Below, in pieces: positions 13,781-34,087 of a DNA stretch of 64,000 nucleotides. The position numbers and the translations under genes are program-made. Under the pieces are notes generated by a model. The model saw only the letters and a list, made by a program, of their open reading frames with translations. It did not search any database and was not told where the DNA came from. Within the stretch, counting starts at the first letter, position 1. Every line of letters starts with the position of its first letter. Where the stretch lies: assembly GCA_964539655.1 (NCBI GenBank), contig CAZIJH010000002.1, positions 80,813 to 144,812 on the forward strand. The letters are read 5' to 3'. The DNA is from an uncultured archaeon. Its GTDB lineage: Archaea > Aenigmatarchaeota > Aenigmatarchaeia > CG10238-14 > SCSR01.

Positions 13781-14203
13781 ATGCTCACACTAAATTTAAA
13801 TATCGATAATCTTTTAGCAAGAATAACTCCTAATTTTTTTGTTATTCTCATCTTTTTTATTTCATTTTGTGCTGGGTTAATTCAATCAATCTATGGGTCG
13901 ATAGTAGATATAATAAATTTTAGAAATACAGGCGATTTAGCATTGCTTAGTCTTGGAATAACTTTATTCTTGTGGGCATTAGATAAATCGGGTGTTTTGG
14001 ATAATGAAAAATCAAAAATTCTTAAAAATTTATTAGTCGTAATATATGCAATCTTAGGTATTATTCTAATCGCTCTTGGGTCGACGAATTCTTTAATTAT
14101 TTTAGTTATAATGGGCCTTTTGGCAGAAGTTATTTTATTTTTGAAAATATACAAATATCTTCGCAATAGAAAAGAGAAAAATAATGTTCTTAAAACGGAC
14201 TGA
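13781..14203 (+). CDS. Hypothetical small membrane protein in an AT-rich patch
   Basis: 140 aa with about 4 hydrophobic helices (FFVILIFFISFCAGLI, LALLSLGITLFLWAL, LLVVIYAILGIILIALG, LIILVIMGLLAEVILFL). The surrounding DNA 13.69-14.34 kb is visibly AT-rich. Confidence 0.5.
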   Translation: MLTLNLNIDNLLARITPNFFVILIFFISFCAGLIQSIYGSIVDIINFRNTGDLALLSLGITLFLWALDKSGVLDNEKSKILKNLLVVIYAILGIILIALGSTNSLIILVIMGLLAEVILFLKIYKYLRNRKEKNNVLKTD

Positions 14204-14329: not shown

Positions 14330-14411
14330 ACTTTTCAGAAAAAGCTTGTTCACAATTGACTATCTTAGACTCGATTATCAAAATAAATTCTTGCCACTAC
14401 CAATAATCCTT

Positions 14412-14960
14412 ATGGTTGAAATCGTCGACCTGGTAAAAGTTGCCACGGATTTCAAAGAATCGAGATCCAGAAGCTTCAGAACCAGAGTCGGAGTCGCGCT
14501 TGAGACTTTCGACGGGAAAATTTATGGCGGGCACAACATCGAGACTTATTTCCTGGACGGATCGCTGCACGCCGAAAGGGTGGCGCTGGTCAGGGCGCTG
14601 GCGGACGGCTACAACGGGACGGACTTCAGAAGAATCGTGGTAGTCTTCCAGGACGCTGGCCACGACAAGGCGGAGATATTCCCCGCCTGCCTTTCGTGCT
14701 GGCAGTTCCTATGGGACTTCACCCATCCTTACCTCGAGATAATAAACGCGGACGTCTCGGGAAACATCCGCAGACAGACCAAGCTGAAAGACATATTCGC
14801 GCTGGATCACGGCTCCATATATCCGTCTAACAACACGCGCGCCGTGAAGCCGAGGAGCAACTCCGAGCCGAAGCTCCCGCTGAATTCAGAACTGCTGCCC
14901 TTTTACGAAAAGGACGCGGACTTCAGGAAATACTGCGACGAGATTCTGAAAGTGAAATAA
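14412..14960 (+). CDS. Cytidine/deoxycytidylate deaminase-fold protein (CDA superfamily)
   Basis: Zinc-binding signature H-A-E ... P-C-x-x-C: GSLHAERVALVRAL and IFPACLSCWQFL. ATG at 14412 within ORF 14346..14960. An extra C-terminal tail of about 50 aa exceeds a minimal CDA. Confidence 0.65.
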   Translation: MVEIVDLVKVATDFKESRSRSFRTRVGVALETFDGKIYGGHNIETYFLDGSLHAERVALVRALADGYNGTDFRRIVVVFQDAGHDKAEIFPACLSCWQFLWDFTHPYLEIINADVSGNIRRQTKLKDIFALDHGSIYPSNNTRAVKPRSNSEPKLPLNSELLPFYEKDADFRKYCDEILKVK

Positions 14961-14985
14961 GTTAATAAAATAATATTATAAATTT

Positions 14986-15381
14986 ATGACCGATATTTTC
15001 TCTAAGCAGAAAAGAAGCTGGATAATGAGCAGGATTAGAGGAAAAGACACCAAGATCGAGAAGCTTCTACAGTCGGAAATGAAAAAAGCCGGAATAAAAT
15101 TCAAGACGCATCCGAAAATTTCCGGAAATCCGGATTTTCTAGTCAGAGAAAAAATTGTTGTTTTTGTCGACGGATGTTTCTGGCATGGGTGCCCCAAACA
15201 TTACAGGCCGCCCAAAAGTAATGGAAAATTCTGGCTGCCAAAAATAAACAAAAATATGGAAAGGGACAGGAAAGTTACAAGACAGTTGCGTAAAACGGGA
15301 TACATAGTTGTTAGATTGTGGGAACATAATTTAGAGGATGATATCAGATTTTGCATAGGTAGAATATCAAAATTCGAGTAA
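14986..15381 (+). CDS. vsr: Very short patch repair endonuclease Vsr
   Basis: 131 aa. MTDIFSKQKRSWIMSRIRGKDTKIE ... PDFLVREKIVVFVDGCFWHGCPKHY is the Vsr signature. It lies beside a C5-cytosine methyltransferase. Confidence 0.9.
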   Translation: MTDIFSKQKRSWIMSRIRGKDTKIEKLLQSEMKKAGIKFKTHPKISGNPDFLVREKIVVFVDGCFWHGCPKHYRPPKSNGKFWLPKINKNMERDRKVTRQLRKTGYIVVRLWEHNLEDDIRFCIGRISKFE

Positions 15382-15557
15382 AATACCTCTTTTCGGAGTA
15401 CTAAATTGGCATATATCAAATTATCCCTAAAATAAAACGACGGGTTGCGACTTTTCCTGCATGGGTGATTGAATACACAGTCGTGCCCGTTTTAATTTTT
15501 TTTGTTAACCTTATGGAGTGCTATTTTCTTTTAAAGTCATATTACACAATTAAAATC

Positions 15558-16517
15558 ATGGTCAAAGAGATAATCAGAGATTTTCATAAGCTTCTCGCAT
15601 CGTCGATAAGAATTCCTCATTCTTACCTAAGGAGGTCCAGAGGTTTCGTAAGCGAATTGAAATTCAAGAGAAAATGCGAGGACGATAAAATAAAATATCT
15701 CGATGGTGGGTGGATATTCTTCAAAGGTGGTAGGCTGGCTGGTGAAAAGCAAACAGTTTATGTTACAACAACATTTGACGCACCTGACGGGTACAAAGAT
15801 TTTTATGAAAAATTATCGAGGTGTCCTCTTGTTAAAAGGCTATTCTTCCTTAAGATAGAACCTGCTGAAAAATGGGGGAAGACGAAGGTCAAAGCGAATC
15901 ATCAGTTGGAATTAGATATTCCGGAACCGTTGTTCGACGTGTACGAGTATAAAGACAGCAAATTCATAAAATCTAGACTCTCTGATTTCTTGGATTCATT
16001 CCAATTAATCAAACCGCCGTTATTCTACAGAATAGATACAAAGGACATATCTCTTCTGGAGTACCTTGACGAATTCTCGGAAAAAGAGTTGTCAGAATTG
16101 TACTGTGCCAGATTCGTTGTCGATTATCTCATGAAAGGCCGCGACATTAGCTATGGCATGGATTTTGACGGAATAATCATTGAAAACGGAAAATATTTTG
16201 TCGTCGAAACAAAGGAAAAGGATCCTGGGCCGAGTAACAGAAACCAAGTCGACAAATCGGAATGGTTTTTCGGATGGGACACGCTTCGAATAGTATGGTA
16301 TCTGTATCTGATCAAAACAACAGATATCAATTGCTACAGTACAATTCTCGAGATAAACAATCAAACCGATAGGAAGTTTGTTGCTTGGAAAAGATGCGAG
16401 CTTCTCAAACTTTGCAGATCTATAAATTACAGTTCTGCAATAGCTGGAGGTATTGGTATGGGAACCACAAAGGGTTCGACTACGATAGCGCCCTATTCGG
16501 TATTTGAAGAATTCTGA
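15558..16517 (+). CDS. Candidate type II restriction endonuclease (PD-(D/E)xK-like), partner of the adjacent C5-MTase
   Basis: Orphan ORF between vsr and dcm. It has a PD-(D/E)xK-like motif, MDFDGIIIENGKYFVVETKEKD (D ... E-x-K). It converges on the methyltransferase gene and overlaps its 3' end by 25 bp. ATG at 15558 preferred over the upstream alternative start at 15465. Confidence 0.5.
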   Translation: MVKEIIRDFHKLLASSIRIPHSYLRRSRGFVSELKFKRKCEDDKIKYLDGGWIFFKGGRLAGEKQTVYVTTTFDAPDGYKDFYEKLSRCPLVKRLFFLKIEPAEKWGKTKVKANHQLELDIPEPLFDVYEYKDSKFIKSRLSDFLDSFQLIKPPLFYRIDTKDISLLEYLDEFSEKELSELYCARFVVDYLMKGRDISYGMDFDGIIIENGKYFVVETKEKDPGPSNRNQVDKSEWFFGWDTLRIVWYLYLIKTTDINCYSTILEINNQTDRKFVAWKRCELLKLCRSINYSSAIAGGIGMGTTKGSTTIAPYSVFEEF

Positions 16518-17509
16518 AGACCCTTTTTAATTTCCTCGGCGACTGCTTTTGCAAGCAGACATGGAACAGCATTTCCTATCTGCCTGTACTGTTCCCTTTT
16601 GCTTCCGCAGAAAATAAAGTCATCCGGAAAACTCTGAACCCTCGCGGCTTCCAACGGAGTAAGCATCCTCATTTCATTCTCCGAGTATTTGACAAGCGCG
16701 TCCGACCCGTCCTTCCAATACCTTGCGGATATCGTATACGAAGGTTTGTTTAAATCGAGTATCTGAAAACCGAACCCCCTTCCCATTTTTTCGTTCCTAG
16801 CCTTTCTTTTCTTAAATCCTTCTATCATTCTAGGCGTATGGAAGAATTTTTTGTCAACCTTGCTTTTTGGAAGCAGTATTTCTTTTACAGGAACCCACGG
16901 TTCAATTTTTTGAAGGACGACGTTGGCCCTATACTTTTTGGAGTGTGTCGGCCTAGGATACGATATCGGTTTGTCCGTTCTTGTGCCTATGAAAATAACC
17001 CTCTTTCTTGTTTCCGGAACACCGTAATCCGCGGAGTTGAGTTTCCTGTGTTCTATTTTATATCCGAGTTTTTTGAACTCGTTTTCGATAATATCCCTTA
17101 CAAGCTTGCCTTCAGAAAGCCTGCTCGTAAGAATGCCCGGAACGTTTTCGATTACAACCCATTTTGGCCTCAGGTCCTTTACAAATCTTAGAAATTCTAT
17201 GAAAAGAGAGTTTCTTGGATCCTTCGGATCGCGCCTGCCAGCCATACTGAATCCCTGACACGGGGGGCCTCCGATAATAAGATCGACATTGCTCCTTCCA
17301 GTGGACTTTAGAAAATCTTTTGCATCGATCTTTTTTATATCGCCGCATACAGCCACAGAATTCGGATGATTTGTCTTGAATGTGTCTATGGAGTATTTGT
17401 CGAAATCTATTCCGCCGATTATCTCGAATCCCGCCATTTCGAACCCCTTGCTTAGGCCACCCGCACCGCAGAATAAATCCAACACTGTCGTTCTTTTCAT
17501 ACTTATCAC
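16493..17509 (-). CDS. dcm: DNA (cytosine-5)-methyltransferase
   Basis: All canonical C5-MTase motifs are present: I LFCGAGGLSKGF, IV GGPPCQGFS, VI ENVPGI, VIII ETRKRVIFIG, X QIGNAVP. Confidence 0.95.
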   Translation of the reverse strand: MISMKRTTVLDLFCGAGGLSKGFEMAGFEIIGGIDFDKYSIDTFKTNHPNSVAVCGDIKKIDAKDFLKSTGRSNVDLIIGGPPCQGFSMAGRRDPKDPRNSLFIEFLRFVKDLRPKWVVIENVPGILTSRLSEGKLVRDIIENEFKKLGYKIEHRKLNSADYGVPETRKRVIFIGTRTDKPISYPRPTHSKKYRANVVLQKIEPWVPVKEILLPKSKVDKKFFHTPRMIEGFKKRKARNEKMGRGFGFQILDLNKPSYTISARYWKDGSDALVKYSENEMRMLTPLEAARVQSFPDDFIFCGSKREQYRQIGNAVPCLLAKAVAEEIKKGLQNSSNTE

Positions 17510-17539: not shown

Positions 17540-17610
17540 CTACGTAGTTATCTACGTATAGATATTTTTATATTCGCTGGTATTTAAATGTTACGTAGGT
17601 GGCAACGTAG
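17540..17610. promoter_or_regulatory. Four ACGTA-core repeats plus TATA-like boxes between dcm and the AbrB-like mini-gene (putative operator/promoter)
   Basis: CTACGTAG (17540-17547, palindromic), CTACGTAT (17552-17559), TTACGTAG (17591-17598) and CAACGTAG (17603-17610). AT-rich TATA-like stretches are TATTTTTATAT (about 17563-17574) and TATTTAAAT (17581-17589). Confidence 0.45.
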
Positions 17611-17765
17611 TGATAAAAGTTAAACTTGTAAAACAGGGGTCGGGGGTTTACACAATAACAATCCCGAAAGCTATAGTGGAGGCACACAGCCTGTACGGAT
17701 CGGATTTCAACTTGGAGATTTCAGGAACCAAAATCATCTTGACCAAAGGTTCGAATAAAAAATAA
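17610..17765 (+). CDS. AbrB/MazE/SpoVT-type DNA-binding mini-protein (51 aa)
   Basis: Below the ORF-track size cutoff. My translation from GTG 17610 is VIKVKLVKQGSGVYTITIPKAIVEAHSLYGSDFNLEISGTKIILTKGSNKK*. The core YTITIPKAIVEAHSL resembles the swapped-hairpin AbrB motif (xVxIPKxIRexLgL). Confidence 0.5.
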   Translation: MIKVKLVKQGSGVYTITIPKAIVEAHSLYGSDFNLEISGTKIILTKGSNKK

Positions 17766-17972
17766 ATTTATAGCAGAACTGGGCAGTAGTTCCGTATAGC
17801 TCTATAGAAAAGTATTTCTGATTCAAATTATACTAATTTCTTAGAAAGGGGTGACAAAACAAGCAATAGAAAAGTTGAGGGAATGTGCAGTCATATTCGA
17901 ACCAACGAATCATGCACCACTTAGATAAAAATTTCTCTTGATACAATATAAACTTACTGTTCTTGAAGCATT

Positions 17973-18815
17973 ATGAAAAATATATTTCAAAAGCATTTGG
18001 TACCAGTAATCAAACTGGCAGAACCAAAAACTTACAGACCTTGGGATTGCATAGATAGTCCTTACATTGTAATTAGGTTGAGTGACTTTCTATCAGTGGA
18101 CGGAACTAAATTCAATTTAAAATATTATGATGTGATTAACTGTGGTGGTCTGCACAATTTTTTGAGTTATCACGGCAGAATTTTACTATCGTCTGTGATA
18201 CCTGATAAGAAAATACTTGGTTTTACTGTAGAAATGTACATAGAATGTATCAATAACTTCCGACCAGATTTTTATATGACTCCTGATGGAGAAACATATG
18301 AAGGTCAACCTAAGATATCGCAAAAAGAAATCGATAGGATAATTAAGGACACTGAAAAGCTTGTAAAAAATTGTCCAGCAAGCACCCCCTTTGGTCTTGT
18401 GAAAGGTTCTACATTTTTTCAAATTGAAAATCATGTAAAAATCATGTTATCTTTTGGAATTACATTTTTCGCTCTACACACAGCAGAATTCTTTAGAGAT
18501 AATAAGATATTCCGTATTTCAAAATGTGTAGAATATGCTAAGATAATTAGAAAGTTTGTCCCATATTTAGCTGTTTACGGTATAGGGTCGAAGGAAAATA
18601 TAAGAAAGTTTTTCTTCGTGGACGATTTCATAACTCAAAGTCATTACACGAAAGCATTCCGAAGAAAAGTTTTACAGCATGGTAAGTGGGTTGAATACAG
18701 AGGCGAAATAACGAGAGATGTAATCATGAATAATCTTAAGGGATTAGAATTGTTTCTAGAGAATCTAAAAAAAGAATATGGAGGTTTAATTAATGGGTGG
18801 TGGCTCGAGAGGTAG
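17973..18815 (+). CDS. TGT-fold (tRNA-guanine transglycosylase / DpdA-like) protein lacking the zinc subdomain
   Basis: Block-wise resemblance to bacterial Tgt as I remember it. CGGLHNFLSYHGRILLSS vs GDLHDFMQWKGPILTDSGG. VEMYIECINNFRPDFYMTPDGE vs SMEIQYDLGSDIVMIFDEC. FGLVKGS vs FGIIQGS. VPYLAVYGIGSKENIRKFFFVDDF vs [25 protein letters not shown]. There is no CxCxxC...H zinc motif and it is only 280 aa. Confidence 0.5.
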   Translation: MKNIFQKHLVPVIKLAEPKTYRPWDCIDSPYIVIRLSDFLSVDGTKFNLKYYDVINCGGLHNFLSYHGRILLSSVIPDKKILGFTVEMYIECINNFRPDFYMTPDGETYEGQPKISQKEIDRIIKDTEKLVKNCPASTPFGLVKGSTFFQIENHVKIMLSFGITFFALHTAEFFRDNKIFRISKCVEYAKIIRKFVPYLAVYGIGSKENIRKFFFVDDFITQSHYTKAFRRKVLQHGKWVEYRGEITRDVIMNNLKGLELFLENLKKEYGGLINGWWLER

Positions 18816-19326
18816 CCGCATATCTTACGCGGCATCAAGAATAGACAACACTGGCAGACCTTTTAGTCAAACAAGAAATCTCAGAACATATACGAGTGTG
18901 ACATCTTCTGATGTTACTGATTTAATTTTACCAATTTTGGTCGAAGTTGGGAAGACTATATACCCGCCCGCCGCTCCCATTCTAGAATTGGGTTATGCAC
19001 TATATGTAAATAGAGATCGTATACAAATTATCTTCAAAGTTGTCAAAGAGTTTAGCGAAGGCGACACAGAAGGTGCCCTGACGGAAGTTGGTAAAGGTGT
19101 TGCAAGAGAAGTTATCAAAGGTAGTCTACAAACAATACAACAACCTCATGTATCTTCATTTGTCGAGAAATCATCAAAAACATTGAATGAAAATGGCTTC
19201 CTAAATTCATCAAAGTATGAAGTTACATACAAAAGAGCCGCCAAAAGAACAGCAGAAGCTGCTCTAGATAAAGTAAATACAAAAGTGGCAGATAAAATTA
19301 TTAAAGAGGGAGATAAAGATGAATGA
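18793..19326 (+). CDS. Hypothetical protein (cassette gene 2)
   Basis: 177-aa ORF whose start overlaps the upstream gene by 23 nt. No recognised motif; the central and C-terminal parts look helical. Confidence 0.45.
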   Translation: MGGGSRGSRISYAASRIDNTGRPFSQTRNLRTYTSVTSSDVTDLILPILVEVGKTIYPPAAPILELGYALYVNRDRIQIIFKVVKEFSEGDTEGALTEVGKGVAREVIKGSLQTIQQPHVSSFVEKSSKTLNENGFLNSSKYEVTYKRAAKRTAEAALDKVNTKVADKIIKEGDKDE

Positions 19327-21414: not shown

Positions 21415-21810
21415 ATGAAACACCTCTTAAGAAGATCTCGAAAATTGTGCATGAAAATTCTTAAGAAGAAATTTAAACCAATTAAAAATATAACCTTTCC
21501 AAAATCTCAAGGAGTTTACATTGTTAAAGAAAAAAACAGGAAATTTTTTGGCGGAAAAATATTCTATGTAGGAAAATCGTATAATTTATACAGAAGAATA
21601 ATGAACGGACATATTGGGCATGGTAGTATACTGACAATTAAATTGAAAAAATATATGCCACGTAAAAAAATCAAAGATTATTTACTAAATAGATGTTTGT
21701 GGACTTTTGAAGAAATAGAAAAATTTGACATTAATTCTTTAGTAGAAATTTTATTGATTGCATATTTAAGACAGAAAGGAATCAGCCATTTGCTAAATCA
21801 ATCTCGATAA
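21415..21810 (+). CDS. GIY-YIG domain protein (stand-alone nuclease-like)
   Basis: SQGVYIVKEKNRKFFGGKIFYVGKSYNLYRRIMNGH fits the GIY...YVG motifs with a downstream Arg. 131 aa, AT-rich, same strand as the cassette. Confidence 0.55.
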   Translation: MKHLLRRSRKLCMKILKKKFKPIKNITFPKSQGVYIVKEKNRKFFGGKIFYVGKSYNLYRRIMNGHIGHGSILTIKLKKYMPRKKIKDYLLNRCLWTFEEIEKFDINSLVEILLIAYLRQKGISHLLNQSR

Positions 21811-21826
21811 AAAATCAATAAATTAA

Positions 21827-22612
21827 TTACGAATTTTTTTTGTTAGAATACAGTTGCTCCAAAATTCTCATCGTTTCCATCTGTAGCCAGTCAACTTTTT
21901 CTGGCGGACACCATGTCATAGGAGTCTGCGAGCGTGCAATTGTTATTACATCTGGCCTGTTCACGCCATTGAGGAGGTTGCGCACATTTTCCATTCTTGA
22001 AATACAGTCGGACGGGCCGTCTTCCCCGATCCTGTCGTTTCCGGATGCGAACGCGTCAAGGTCGATGTCGAGTATGAGCGAACGCGGAGAACCGTTTATC
22101 TCGCCGCACATCTCTTTCATGCCGATAATGTCCGGGCTTGGAACAGAATGTTTGCCGGTCGTCGTTTCCCACAAAATGTTGTATCTCTCGTCAAAACGTG
22201 TTTTCGGGACGTTTTTGATTTCTCCGTTGGCTATCCTGCCATACGCGCAGATGTATTTGTTCCTCGGATCGTAATGGTAGATCGGGCCAGCTATTCCGTC
22301 GGTGACTGCGACAGAGATGAAATCTCCTATGTTTATGTCTCTGACAATGTTTTTCCTGTAAAATTCTCCGCGCATTTTGTCCAAGTCGCATTTCTTTGCT
22401 ATTTGGCTGGGAACCAGCGCGCCGCACGCCATATCGCTGTGATTGTCTATATGCAAGACCGCCGCCGGACTGCCTTTTACCCTGTACCACGCATCAAGCA
22501 CATCGTCGTGCGGATCAACTATGCAGCAGTCGATGCCCGCGATCGAAATGTTCTCGGGATATGTGTACGTTCCTTTTTCTTTGCTCAACAGTTTTGTGTC
22601 TGCCTTCAGCAT
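21827..22612 (-). CDS. UPF0489 (C5orf22-like) family protein
   Basis: Resembles blocks I recall from eukaryotic UPF0489. CCIVDPHDDVLDAWYRV...AVLHIDNHSDMA vs VVEDHQEVLPFIYRA...FLHFDSHPDL. SLILDIDLDAFAS vs FVLDIDLDFFSV. PDVITIARSQTPMTWCPPEKVDWLQ vs [24 protein letters not shown]. Confidence 0.6.
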   Translation of the reverse strand: MLKADTKLLSKEKGTYTYPENISIAGIDCCIVDPHDDVLDAWYRVKGSPAAVLHIDNHSDMACGALVPSQIAKKCDLDKMRGEFYRKNIVRDINIGDFISVAVTDGIAGPIYHYDPRNKYICAYGRIANGEIKNVPKTRFDERYNILWETTTGKHSVPSPDIIGMKEMCGEINGSPRSLILDIDLDAFASGNDRIGEDGPSDCISRMENVRNLLNGVNRPDVITIARSQTPMTWCPPEKVDWLQMETMRILEQLYSNKKNS

Positions 22613-22683: not shown

Positions 22684-22748
22684 GTTCTAGTTTAGAACGT
22701 ATGTTATATGATAGAACCGCACGGTAATGAAAACGAACATACGTTCTA
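22684..22748. promoter_or_regulatory. TAGAAC/GTTCTA half-site cluster, including a 13-bp perfect inverted repeat bracketing the MNT start codon
   Basis: TAGAACGTATGTT (22693-22705) and its exact complement AACATACGTTCTA (22736-22748) flank ATG 22708. Extra half-sites are GTTCTA (22684-22689) and TAGAAC (22712-22717). Confidence 0.5.
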
Positions 22749-23298
22749 TATACAAACCGCTCTCCAGAAAGTGCAGGAGGTCTTCTATAAATTTCCTGAA
22801 AGGGAGTTCAGCCTGAGCGACCTCGCAGAGGAGGCGGGCGTGGCGAAGGCGAATCTGGGGCGCATCATCGTCATTCTTGAGAAATACGGATTCGTCAAGC
22901 TCGAGAAACTCACGAAAATTTGGCGCATCAAAGCGAACCAGTCAAGCTGGTTCTTTGTTAAGAACAAAATAATTTACAATCTGAATTTGATTTATCAAAG
23001 CGGAATAACAGAAATTCTCAACGAAATATACAGCCGTCCAAAATCGATAACACTCTTTGGGAGTTTCAGGAAAGGCGAGGACATTTCTACATCCGACATA
23101 GACGTAGCCGTGGAGAGCGACGAATTCAAGGAATACAAGATATTGTCCGGGCTGAAGGAGCTCGAATCGATCGGGAAGACGATCGGCGGACGCAAGATCC
23201 AGATACACGAGTTCAGCAGGAAAACAGTCGACAAGAACCTGTTCAACAACATCGCGAACGGTATCGTGCTCATAGGATTTCTGGAAGTGAACCCGTGA
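22708..23298 (+). CDS. wHTH-fused minimal nucleotidyltransferase (MNT)
   Basis: N-terminal wHTH-like region (FSLSDLAEEAGVAKANLGRIIVILEKYGFVKLEK) plus the pol-beta NTase motif LFGSFRKGEDISTSDIDVAV. Overlaps the downstream HEPN gene by 4 nt. Confidence 0.8.
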   Translation: MIEPHGNENEHTFYIQTALQKVQEVFYKFPEREFSLSDLAEEAGVAKANLGRIIVILEKYGFVKLEKLTKIWRIKANQSSWFFVKNKIIYNLNLIYQSGITEILNEIYSRPKSITLFGSFRKGEDISTSDIDVAVESDEFKEYKILSGLKELESIGKTIGGRKIQIHEFSRKTVDKNLFNNIANGIVLIGFLEVNP

Positions 23299-23735
23299 GA
23301 AAAGAATTTCTCGGCATGCTCGTCAGGGACGGAAGGATCAGAATAAGGAGCGTGGACAACGAAAGGATAAAATCGTTGCTCAGCTCCGCCGCGATGAATA
23401 CGAAAGTTGTCCTGTCGATGAAAGTCACCGAAGAAAATGCCACGGTCATATTCAGGGAAGTGTACGAATCCGTACGGCAGTTGGGGGACGCAAGATGGTG
23501 GTCTCTGGGATACGAACCCTGGGGTTCTGGAGGGCACGAAGTGTGTCTGGAAATTTTGAAGGACATGGAAGTCGAACAGAAAACAAAACTTAATTTTTTG
23601 GACAGGTTCAGGCAGATAAGGAACGAGGCGAATTACCGCGGATACAAAATATCTGTCGCCCAGGCCACGGAAATTGCAAATTTCTGGAACGAAGTGGGGA
23701 AAGAGATACTTGGATTGCTTAAGAAAAATCTTTGA
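23295..23735 (+). CDS. HEPN domain protein (cognate of MNT)
   Basis: 146 aa, helical. The motif RFRQIRNEANYRG resembles the HEPN R-x4-6-H region, though with Tyr where His is expected. Canonical MNT-HEPN gene pair arrangement. Confidence 0.65.
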   Translation: MRKEFLGMLVRDGRIRIRSVDNERIKSLLSSAAMNTKVVLSMKVTEENATVIFREVYESVRQLGDARWWSLGYEPWGSGGHEVCLEILKDMEVEQKTKLNFLDRFRQIRNEANYRGYKISVAQATEIANFWNEVGKEILGLLKKNL

Positions 23736-25042: not shown

Positions 25043-25294
25043 ATGTCAAAGGTGATCACGCTCAGCCTGAAGGACGACGTTGAGAAGGAATTGCGAAGAT
25101 TGGCCGTTCAGAAGTTCGGTGGCGGCAAGGGGAGCATGTCGAAAGTCGTGGCCGAGGCCGTAGACGAATTGAAGAAGAAGGAAACGATTGATCCCGGATA
25201 TGCGAAATTCCTACAGGTCATGAAAGAGATCGAAGGAAAGGGTTACGGCGGACTGAAAAAGTACAAATCCAGGAGCGAACTCTATGAAAGATGA
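25043..25294 (+). CDS. vapB: Type II antitoxin (RHH/VapB-like)
   Basis: 83 aa: MSKVITLSLKDDVEKELRRLAVQKFGGGKGSMSKVVAEAVDEL is RHH-like. Overlaps the downstream PIN gene by 11 nt. Confidence 0.65.
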   Translation: MSKVITLSLKDDVEKELRRLAVQKFGGGKGSMSKVVAEAVDELKKKETIDPGYAKFLQVMKEIEGKGYGGLKKYKSRSELYER

Positions 25295-25715
25295 AATTTT
25301 CTTCGACACAAATATTCTGACTTACGTACACGACGAAAGCGAGCCGGCCAAAAGAGAAATCTGCGGCGCCCTGATGCAGAGCGCATTCAAAGGCGAAATC
25401 GCCGGCGTGGTGTCGAACCAGATACTGGCGGAATTCTACGCCTCTTTGACAGAACGGCTGAGAAAGCCCGTCCCAAAATTGCTCGCGATGTCGCTCGTCG
25501 AGTCGCTGATAGTGTCCGGAAAATGGACGAAGGTAAGTTACGACGCAAAGACCGTGCAAAACGCCCTTGACATATTGGAGGCGAACGGCGGCACGATTTT
25601 CGACGCGATTGTCGTCAGCACCATGAAAGAAAACGGAATCACCAAGATTTACACCGAGGACAAATTTTTCTTCAAGGTGCCCGGAATAAAAGCCATAAAC
25701 CCGTTCAAGAAATAA
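25284..25715 (+). CDS. vapC: PIN-domain toxin VapC
   Basis: IFFDTNILTYVHD (first acidic residue), later SNQILAEF, IFDAIVV and IYTEDKFF supply the remaining PIN acidic residues. 143 aa. Confidence 0.8.
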   Translation: MKDEIFFDTNILTYVHDESEPAKREICGALMQSAFKGEIAGVVSNQILAEFYASLTERLRKPVPKLLAMSLVESLIVSGKWTKVSYDAKTVQNALDILEANGGTIFDAIVVSTMKENGITKIYTEDKFFFKVPGIKAINPFKK

Positions 25716-33949: not shown

Positions 33950-34002
33950 TTGATTTCTAAATGATTGGTAGAATTTTAATTATTTAAGCTTGACAACAAA
34001 GT

Positions 34003-34087
34003 GCGGGAGGTGGGATTTGAACCCACGTAAGCACTAAGCTACTGGCTCCTGAAGCCAGCCGAATTGACCAGGCTATCGGACCCCCGC
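34003..34087 (-). tRNA. tRNA-Leu (anticodon CAG), class II with long variable arm
   Basis: The reverse complement GCGGGGG-UC-CGA..UCG-G-CUGGC-UUCAGGA-GCCAG-UAGCUUAGUGCUUAC-GUGGG-UUCAAAU-CCCAC-CUCCCGC folds into a cloverleaf. It has a 7-bp acceptor stem (one G-U), a 5-bp anticodon stem with loop UUCAGGA (anticodon CAG), a long variable arm, and T-loop UUCAAAU. CCA is not encoded. Confidence 0.9.

Follow-up and report, generated by a model that had tools for sequence, protein, structure and literature searches.

We analysed a stretch of 64,000 nucleotides (hereafter the window) from contig CAZIJH010000002.1 of an uncultured archaeon of the Aenigmatarchaeota (assembly GCA_964539655.1, positions 80,813 to 144,812). 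The subject is a gene for a compact protein with the fold of the tRNA-guanine transglycosylases (TGT), here called the barrel protein. The gene lies in a low-GC stretch (GC 0.29-0.40 vs 0.45-0.48 elsewhere), and the wider window encodes RadA-type recombinases, Bud32, S15 and S3Ae. All defence-type genes of the window are found between positions 14000 and 22000 (GC 0.29-0.40, against about 0.46 in the flanks), where Pfam identified Vsr, a C5 DNA methylase, an AbrB/MazE-like protein, an Mrr protein with TPR repeats and a weak GIY-YIG-like match. This low-GC stretch is a defence island. A search for direct repeats bounding the island gave nothing convincing, and no bounding tRNA gene or integrase was found, the sole tRNA gene of the window being at 34001-34087.

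The barrel gene is followed by three overlapping genes on the same strand (Table 1). The protein encoded by gene 2 begins with MGGGSRGSR and carries a conserved tail of 35 residues; past this tail, a single-sequence AlphaFold2 (AF2) model predicts a helical protein with low confidence (predicted local distance difference test, pLDDT, 45). Gene 4 also matches the PADLOC models PDC-M58A (E=2.6e-20) and LmuA (E=1.7e-7), and its product is the candidate effector of the four-gene operon. Because the helical partner is followed by the small protein of gene 3 and by an Mrr-TPR nuclease, the output is probably nucleolytic, and the cassette is probably a four-gene operon with a nuclease as its last component. 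Upstream, a TATA-like box is a weak indication of an archaeal operon transcript with a short leader or none.

Table 1. Features of the barrel operon, in window positions.
Feature	Position	Strand	Remarks
TATA-like box, AT-rich (AATATAAA)	17945..17952	+	by eye only, weak; ~25 nt 5' of the barrel ATG
Cap10-like TGT-superfamily (beta/alpha)8 barrel, 280 aa	17973..18815	+	open reading frame (ORF) spans exactly this interval, start ATG; ORF, AF2, Foldseek, hhalign, conservation
Shine-Dalgarno (SD) sequence GGAGGT	18780..18785	+	7 nt 5' of the gene-2 ATG, inside the 3' end of the barrel gene
Gene 2, tailed partner, 177 aa	18793..19326	+	overlaps the barrel gene by 23 nt
Conserved tail of gene 2, residues 1-35: MGGGSRGSRISYAASRIDNTGRPFSQ	18793-18897	+	25/35 identical to the TIR protein of locus L001
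Gene 3, small protein, 97 aa	19319..19612	+	8-nt overlap with gene 2, 4-nt overlap with gene 4
Gene 4, Mrr_cat and about 10 TPR repeats, 578 aa	19609..21345	+	Pfam Mrr_cat E=7.7e-13, plus TPR families

The barrel protein is a TGT-superfamily TIM barrel by both fold and homology. With the family alignment as input, AF2 gave a confident model (pLDDT 93.3; predicted template modelling score, pTM, 0.90) with TGT topology, and all 50 PDB matches listed by Foldseek were tRNA-guanine transglycosylases (E about 1e-10, probability 1.00, TM(query) about 0.70). Against a viral library, the best named Foldseek matches were TGT/DpdA-like proteins, which are short (240-290 aa). The Pfam TGT profile aligned in register, with residues 81-165 on profile positions 110-199 (E=2.7e-3), at a score of 17.3 bits that lies under the gathering cut-off of 26.3. 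The PADLOC model 'TGT' (PDLC00912), which we take to be the TGT model of the cyclic oligonucleotide-based antiphage signalling system (CBASS) of type IV, matched the window protein at E=4e-4 and 12 of 25 family members at E<=0.01 (best 4.7e-6), and did not match E. coli Tgt. A search of NCBIfam with the barrel protein returned no match, and PDB sequences searched with the protein and with the family profile (phmmer, hmmsearch) gave no real match.

Relatives of the barrel protein were numerous. A word-index search recovered 26, and an exhaustive profile search found 263 family representatives at E<=1e-3, 99 of which reached E<=1e-30; the family amounts to about 100 clusters at 50% identity. The family alignment was collinear with E. 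coli Tgt in hhalign, a comparison that is weak when taken alone (E=0.011, probability 3.8%). The aligned pairs were GGLHNFLSYHGRILLSS/GDLHDFMQWKGPILTDS, DFYMTPD-GETYEG/DIVMIFDECTPYPA, FGLVKGS/FGIIQGS, YGIGSKENI/MGVGKPEDL and VDDF/IDMF. Significance came through a sister clade that bears a zinc site: the family profile matched this clade with a probability of 100% (E=1.4e-45), and the sister-clade profile in turn matched P. horikoshii ArcTGT (1iq8) at E=1.2e-15, over the barrel and the CxCxxC..H zinc site. Because the AF2 barrel, the Foldseek matches and the chain of profiles from the family through the sister clade to ArcTGT all lead to TGT, the barrel protein belongs to this superfamily and does not resemble it by chance. 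With its zinc site, the sister clade is a hint that ArcTGT-like proteins were the source from which the barrel was recruited. Barrel-TIR fusions were considered among the long family members and rejected, as these have no extra Pfam domains.

Catalytic positions were mapped by alignment with ArcTGT and by hhalign to E. coli Tgt, and conservation was counted over 94 family representatives. The general-base Asp of TDSGG (Zm D102, Ec D89, Ph D95) corresponds to S73, a position that is Ser in 89/94, and the Gln of GIIQG is replaced by K144 (Lys in 89/94). The base-binding Asp of FDEC is retained as D105, in the motif PDG, and is conserved in 93/94; the nucleophile Asp of DMFD is D217 (Asp in 80/94, Asn in 7/94). 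Near-invariant too are D78, T103, T108, Y109, G141, G145, H169 and G203, and the conserved residues that face the pocket are S73, D78, T103, D105, T108, Y109, K144, H169, G203, G205 and D217. Loss of the zinc site in the family is evident from a deletion of ~18 residues at the zinc motif region relative to the sister clade, from the change of HN to NN in the last helix and from the absence of CxCxxC in the 280-residue protein. No PUA or other C-terminal domain follows the barrel, and the protein ends 63 residues past D217.

These results agree in most points with the original prediction, which had been made from the sequence by eye. Its four Tgt-like blocks were all reproduced by profile methods in collinear order; the TGT fold without a zinc subdomain, the replacement of the TDSGG Asp by Ser, the retention of the FDEC Asp and an end about 60 residues after the last motif, with neither zinc site nor PUA domain, were borne out. 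The nucleophile, which it had called ambiguous within VDDFI, could be assigned. The significant match to the TGT TIM barrel on which it had staked its case was found by Foldseek and, through the sister clade, by profile alignment. With the zinc subdomain gone and the general-base Asp replaced, tRNA modification is very unlikely, as had been proposed. Compared with ArcTGT and bacterial Tgt, the barrel protein thus has the same fold and the same order of active-site motifs, whereas it lacks the zinc site and the C-terminal PUA domain, carries Ser for Asp and Lys for Gln, and is encoded in a defence island rather than in a tRNA modification context.

Homologue look-ups, a genome scan and a metagenome scan yielded 57 distinct related loci, 43 of which were added by metagenomes. 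The 13 genome-derived loci are all archaeal, with hosts in Methanoregula, Methanoculleus, Methanogenium, Methanofollis, Methanolobus, Bathyarchaeia, Micrarchaeota, Iainarchaeum and Woesearchaeota. The gene 3' of the barrel gene starts, in almost all loci that include downstream DNA, with MG[GST]G.R..R..Y[AS]. This MG[GST]G start is followed by about 35 low-complexity residues, whatever the globular domain of the partner (TIR, SMODS, metallo-beta-lactamase (MBL) or helical). An MG-type start near the barrel stop was present in 52/52 loci with at least 60 nt downstream, as counted with a permissive start-finding pattern that chose a spurious short ORF at L001 and L011. The partner start codons are ATG, GTG or TTG, each of which places MGGG at the true N-terminus, and an SD-like purine-rich stretch precedes this start in most of the related loci listed.

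The domain behind the tail varies. Where at least 520 nt of downstream DNA were available (n=45), the partner was a TIR protein in 40 loci, an MBL protein in two, helical or of no assigned type in two and a SMODS protein in one. The TIR partner is a highly conserved protein of ThsB type, with the Glu of the WEI motif kept in the aligned examples, and is followed by the 8xMP membrane protein (PF24838) in 29/40 loci with at least 1100 nt downstream. At L049, the sole SMODS case among the relatives, a SMODS cyclase is followed by a Cap17-like effector. L058 and L063 have the MBL partner, and L052 and L069 a tailed helical partner of ~170 aa, then a ~90-aa protein and a UvrD helicase. Second TIR genes in the same loci have no tail.

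On sequence comparison, the tail follows the barrel and not the domain of the partner. P0019 and P0020, with a SMODS and a TIR partner respectively, are 76% identical and have 17/35 tail residues in common. Likewise, the barrels of the window and of L001 are 61% identical and the tails 25/35 identical, with unrelated partner domains. We considered whether the tail is conserved as a side effect of its overlap with the end of the barrel gene, an explanation that we rejected since in many loci, for example L008, L025 and L058, there is no overlap between the two genes at all.

Other genes recur around these cassettes. Instead of 8xMP, directly after the barrel gene and the tailed TIR gene, a tail-less second TIR protein and a Peptidase_C14 caspase-like protein are encoded at L007:7272-9238, L017:7537-8905, L040:5373-6780 and L064:1141-1981, a pair that resembles type IV Thoeris; at L007 a 160-aa protein with a weak ShosA-like match follows as well. 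A literature search for 8xMP and for Thoeris with a TIM barrel turned up nothing relevant. In at least 17 loci, a divergent gene 5' of the barrel-TIR-8xMP cassette encodes a regulator with an HFX_2341_N domain (a CARF/Csa3-like Rossmann domain) and a winged helix (for example L008:4962-5753(-) and L015:5225-5830(-)). This CARF-like winged helix-turn-helix (wHTH) regulator suggests transcriptional control that responds to a signal. The window has no such regulator; an AbrB/MazE-like gene of 51 aa (17610-17765) lies upstream instead. The cassette of the closest homologue (L001:1364-6827) adjoins DUF1156 and DUF499 genes, L006 has an N6/N4 methylase, a helicase, an integrase and Mrr, and L019 a JetD-like gene. 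Defence islands or mobile elements are therefore the consistent setting of the barrel family.

The arrangement of barrel and tailed neighbour recalls Cap10 of type IV CBASS, a TGT-family barrel without a zinc site that cannot bind tRNA (Wassarman et al. 2025, Science 389:1347; 10.1101/2025.04.06.647259). The base pocket of Cap10 binds the N-terminus of the cGAS/DncV-like nucleotidyltransferase (CD-NTase), with the motif M(G/S)G(G/S)GG, and Gly2 of this CD-NTase bears 7-amido-7-deazaguanine, put on by the QueC-like Cap9, which is essential in type IV CBASS (10.1101/2025.04.06.647259). The base is read in Cap10 by D73, S74, D122 and K154, with D248 as the catalytic residue and D73 essential for defence (10.1101/2025.04.06.647259). 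The barrel protein is similarly a zinc-less TGT barrel encoded beside an immune protein with an MG(G/S)G N-terminus and a long flexible tail. It also resembles Cap10 in having Lys for the Gln of TGT and in retaining the base-binding and nucleophile Asp. By a TGT-based mapping, the five Cap10 residues correspond to S73, S74, D105, K144 and D217, so that 4/5 are kept but the essential D73 is replaced by Ser. At one related locus, L049, the barrel is indeed paired with a SMODS cyclase and a Cap17-like effector. However, the partner in the other loci is not a CD-NTase; it is mostly a ThsB-type TIR protein, and in the window an orphan helical protein. Unlike Cap10 systems, moreover, the genome-derived loci are exclusively archaeal (13/13), and the nearest detectable relatives of the barrel are ArcTGT-like.

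Cap10-type proteins have also been connected with TIR proteins. Thoeris operons with cap9/cap10/cap11 have been noted in bacteria, for example in a Pseudomonadales bacterium (10.64898/2025.12.03.692087, Fig. 6G), and an AlphaFold3 (AF3) model by the same authors predicts a TIR-Cap10 interaction akin to that of CdnD and Cap10 (10.64898/2025.12.03.692087). In our related loci too, a TGT protein of Cap10 type goes together with a signalling TIR protein and an effector. In contrast to the bacterial operons, the archaeal cassettes consist of the Cap10-like protein, TIR and 8xMP only, often with the CARF-like wHTH regulator upstream. A ThsB-type TIR protein plus effector, by which Thoeris is recognised, was not found in the window, and the TIR partner belongs to the related loci (40/45).

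Since a conserved downstream protein with an MGGG tail is the hallmark of Cap10, the likely ligand of the barrel is a protein tail and not DNA or tRNA. By analogy with Cap10, the barrel probably holds the product of the neighbouring gene by its glycine-rich N-terminal tail. We put at about 65% the probability that it would act as a Cap10-like reader of the partner's N-terminal tail, and as the subunit that stays constant in a modular defence cassette of archaea. The original prediction had allowed for a binding role, which pointed in the right direction. In the mechanism that we propose after the Cap10-CdnD crystal structure, the N-terminal Gly and the tail of the partner would, after removal of Met, thread into the former guanine/preQ pocket of the barrel. 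The complex would keep the partner primed but inactive until infection, when the retained Asp217 may transfer or release the tail. In most relatives, the signal of the ThsB-type TIR partner would then drive the 8xMP membrane protein or the caspase-like protease.

Several observations weigh against a Cap10-like tail reader. A scan for the PP-loop motif found no Cap9/QueC-like gene in the flanks of the 57 loci or in the 64-kb window, and clustering of the flank ORFs revealed no recurrent QueC-like cluster. Unlike type IV CBASS, in which Cap9 is indispensable, the 57 loci have neither a Cap9 nor a Cap11 (OGG-like) gene, and the position of the essential D73 of Cap10 is a conserved Ser in the barrel family. 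Searched with HMMER against PDB sequences, the family and sister-clade profiles matched no Cap10 chain (the sister-clade protein P0120 yielded only noise); these searches therefore do not establish a specific ancestry shared with Cap10 rather than parallel descent from ArcTGT-like proteins. D217 is not invariant, the closest homologue (P0002) having Asn in its place, and the HxGD motif of the family reads HTAE in the window protein. Finally, gene 2 has no homologue but itself among 5.8 billion proteins, and no TIR or 8xMP gene, or remnant of one, was found anywhere in the 64-kb window. Given that no member of the family is accompanied by a Cap9/QueC gene, the tail may be unmodified, may be modified by a housekeeping or unlinked QueC, or may carry another group.

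A tentative extension of the tail-reading model, which we find more doubtful than credible, would make the archaeal clade a Cap9-independent tail reader and a universal adaptor for any effector (TIR, SMODS, MBL nuclease or helical). The pocket, with Ser for the essential Asp, might then read an unmodified N-terminal Gly, a tail Arg or a tail modified by the housekeeping QueC of the archaeosine pathway. Asp217 might covalently tether the effector to invader nucleic acid, and the clade may descend from ArcTGT-like ancestors by a path separate from that of bacterial Cap10.

The Qat system offers a further parallel to a tail-reading barrel. QatB of QatABCD, an immunity protein of helical type, has a long N-terminal tail that is disordered and whose essential MGTS is read by the QueC-like enzyme QatC (PMC13279940). 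The recogniser is thus QueC-like in Qat, whereas it is TGT-like here. Among our loci, L067:5001-9466 and L068:2189-6654 contain a Qat-like operon encoding a helical protein of 154 aa with a tail (MGTRRG..), then proteins of 94 aa, 462 aa (with a faint match to QueC) and 796 aa. The helical partner of L052 type stands beside the Cap10-like gene at L052 and L069 and beside the QueC-like gene at L067/L068. Because the first two proteins are common to L067/L068 and L052/L069, the same substrate protein can be matched with an enzyme of either the QueC-like or the TGT-like kind; this shared partner links the barrel family to QueC/deazaguanine biochemistry. The layout of the window cassette parallels that of L069, and also that of L052, in the order barrel, tailed helical protein, ~90-aa protein and large nucleic-acid enzyme, with gene 3 at the position of the 90-94 aa proteins of L052, L069 and L067. 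The helical partner of the window has no detectable similarity to the L052-type family, and in BLAST and hhalign comparisons genes 2 and 3 showed no similarity to the L052-type partner and small protein beyond the tail.

An unlikely alternative is that the barrel acts on a nucleic acid or on a nucleotide signal, either as a DpdA-like transglycosylase or glycosylase that senses or marks invader DNA or RNA, or as a receptor or processor of the TIR or SMODS product. This would account for the strong conservation of the pocket residues, including the base-binding and nucleophile Asp, and for the neighbouring nucleotide-signal synthases, and it would suit the HFX_2341/CARF-like wHTH regulator upstream of the cassettes in at least 17 loci. 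Like DpdA (7ui4) and phage DpdA, moreover, the protein is a TGT barrel in a defence or counter-defence context, and Foldseek relates it to short viral TGT/DpdA-like proteins, some of which are equally short. However, the zinc subdomain and the general-base Asp have been lost, and genes of dpdB/dpdC type or for preQ0 or 7-deazaguanine synthesis are lacking nearby, with none among the neighbours in the 57 loci. The PADLOC DpdA models matched neither the window protein nor the 25 family members, although they do match E. coli Tgt, and the sister-clade profile reached just E=0.2 against 7ui4. The DNA-acting, DpdA-like role that had initially been considered is accordingly not favoured. A signal-processing role, for its part, cannot be general, because the partners include non-signalling MBL and helical proteins. 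Action on nucleic acid or nucleotide also leaves unexplained why the N-terminal tail is conserved and stays with the barrel when the partner domain is exchanged.

It is also possible, as a quite unlikely minority option, that the barrel protein is a true family member in a decaying cassette, from which recombination took TIR and 8xMP and left the barrel gene with a tail stub fused to unrelated sequence and without any present function. Homology between the window and L001 extends at the DNA level from 17972 to about 18874 and at the protein level to 18897, and so ends at about codon 27-35 of gene 2. Beyond this point GC falls to 0.29-0.33, and the lack of TIR and 8xMP remnants, the orphan status of gene 2 and the altered HxGD motif would also fit decay. 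Against this, the barrel ORF has its full length and retains all invariant residues, and gene 2 runs on without a stop for another ~140 codons in DNA of ~33% GC that is rich in stops, for which we estimate a chance probability of about 2e-5. The SD-like site and the overlaps of genes 1-4 (23, 8 and 4 nt) are those of a coupled operon, and the same layout at L052 and L069 means that non-TIR versions recur. The last alternative, a chance motif match in an AT-rich ORF rich in Lys, Ile and Phe, draws on the sub-gathering Pfam match and the low hhalign probability against a single Tgt, and is effectively refuted by the confident AF2 barrel, the TGT identity of all 50 PDB matches listed, the chain of significant profile matches and the 263 family representatives.

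The barrel family is an undescribed compact archaeal family that keeps the Cap10-like barrel and the Gly-rich tail and drops Cap9 and Cap11. To our knowledge, the first descriptions of Cap10 and of protein deazaguanylation date from 2025, and it is not yet known what the Cap10 step acts on and to what end. With its free swapping among TIR, cyclase, nuclease and helical partners, the archaeal family would lend itself, as a pared-down natural system, to the question of what the barrel recognises and what it does. With a tail-reading role, priming through the tail would reach beyond CBASS to archaeal systems of Thoeris-like and nuclease type. It also bears on annotation, as the barrel family has no Pfam or NCBIfam name and its TIR partners would be labelled plain Thoeris.

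The sister clade (L021:7001-8083, L022 and L023:1670-3523; P0120-P0167) consists of archaeal TGT-like proteins of about 350 aa with a Cys-rich N-terminal domain (CGxxCxxC...GC). Many members keep the C-terminal CxCxxC...HN zinc motif, and some are fused to a calcineurin-like phosphoesterase (Metallophos); the clade has no Pfam name. Its neighbourhood at L021/L022 is one of housekeeping genes, with Kae1, Bud32, Ham1, the TGT-like gene, a LAGLIDADG-like gene, Spt4, Nop56 and fibrillarin.

Upstream of the barrel operon in the window, a cluster at 14346-17509 begins with a 204-aa ORF (14346-14960) that looks cytidine-deaminase-like, by eye only. It is followed by a Vsr mismatch endonuclease (14986-15381), a 350-aa protein without a family match (15465-16517) and a convergent C5 DNA methylase on the minus strand (16493-17509). 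This cluster probably represents a restriction-modification unit of type II combined with very-short-patch repair. At the other edge of the island lie the weak GIY-YIG protein (21415-21810, plus strand), which also has a weak PADLOC match to PDC-S14, and a UPF0489 protein (21827-22612, minus strand). Further downstream, inspection by eye revealed a nucleotidyltransferase-like ORF (22708-23298, GSF..G..STSDIDV) that overlaps a 146-aa ORF (23295-23735), a pair resembling toxin-antitoxin systems of MNT/HEPN type, and a PIN/VapC-like ORF at 25284-25715.

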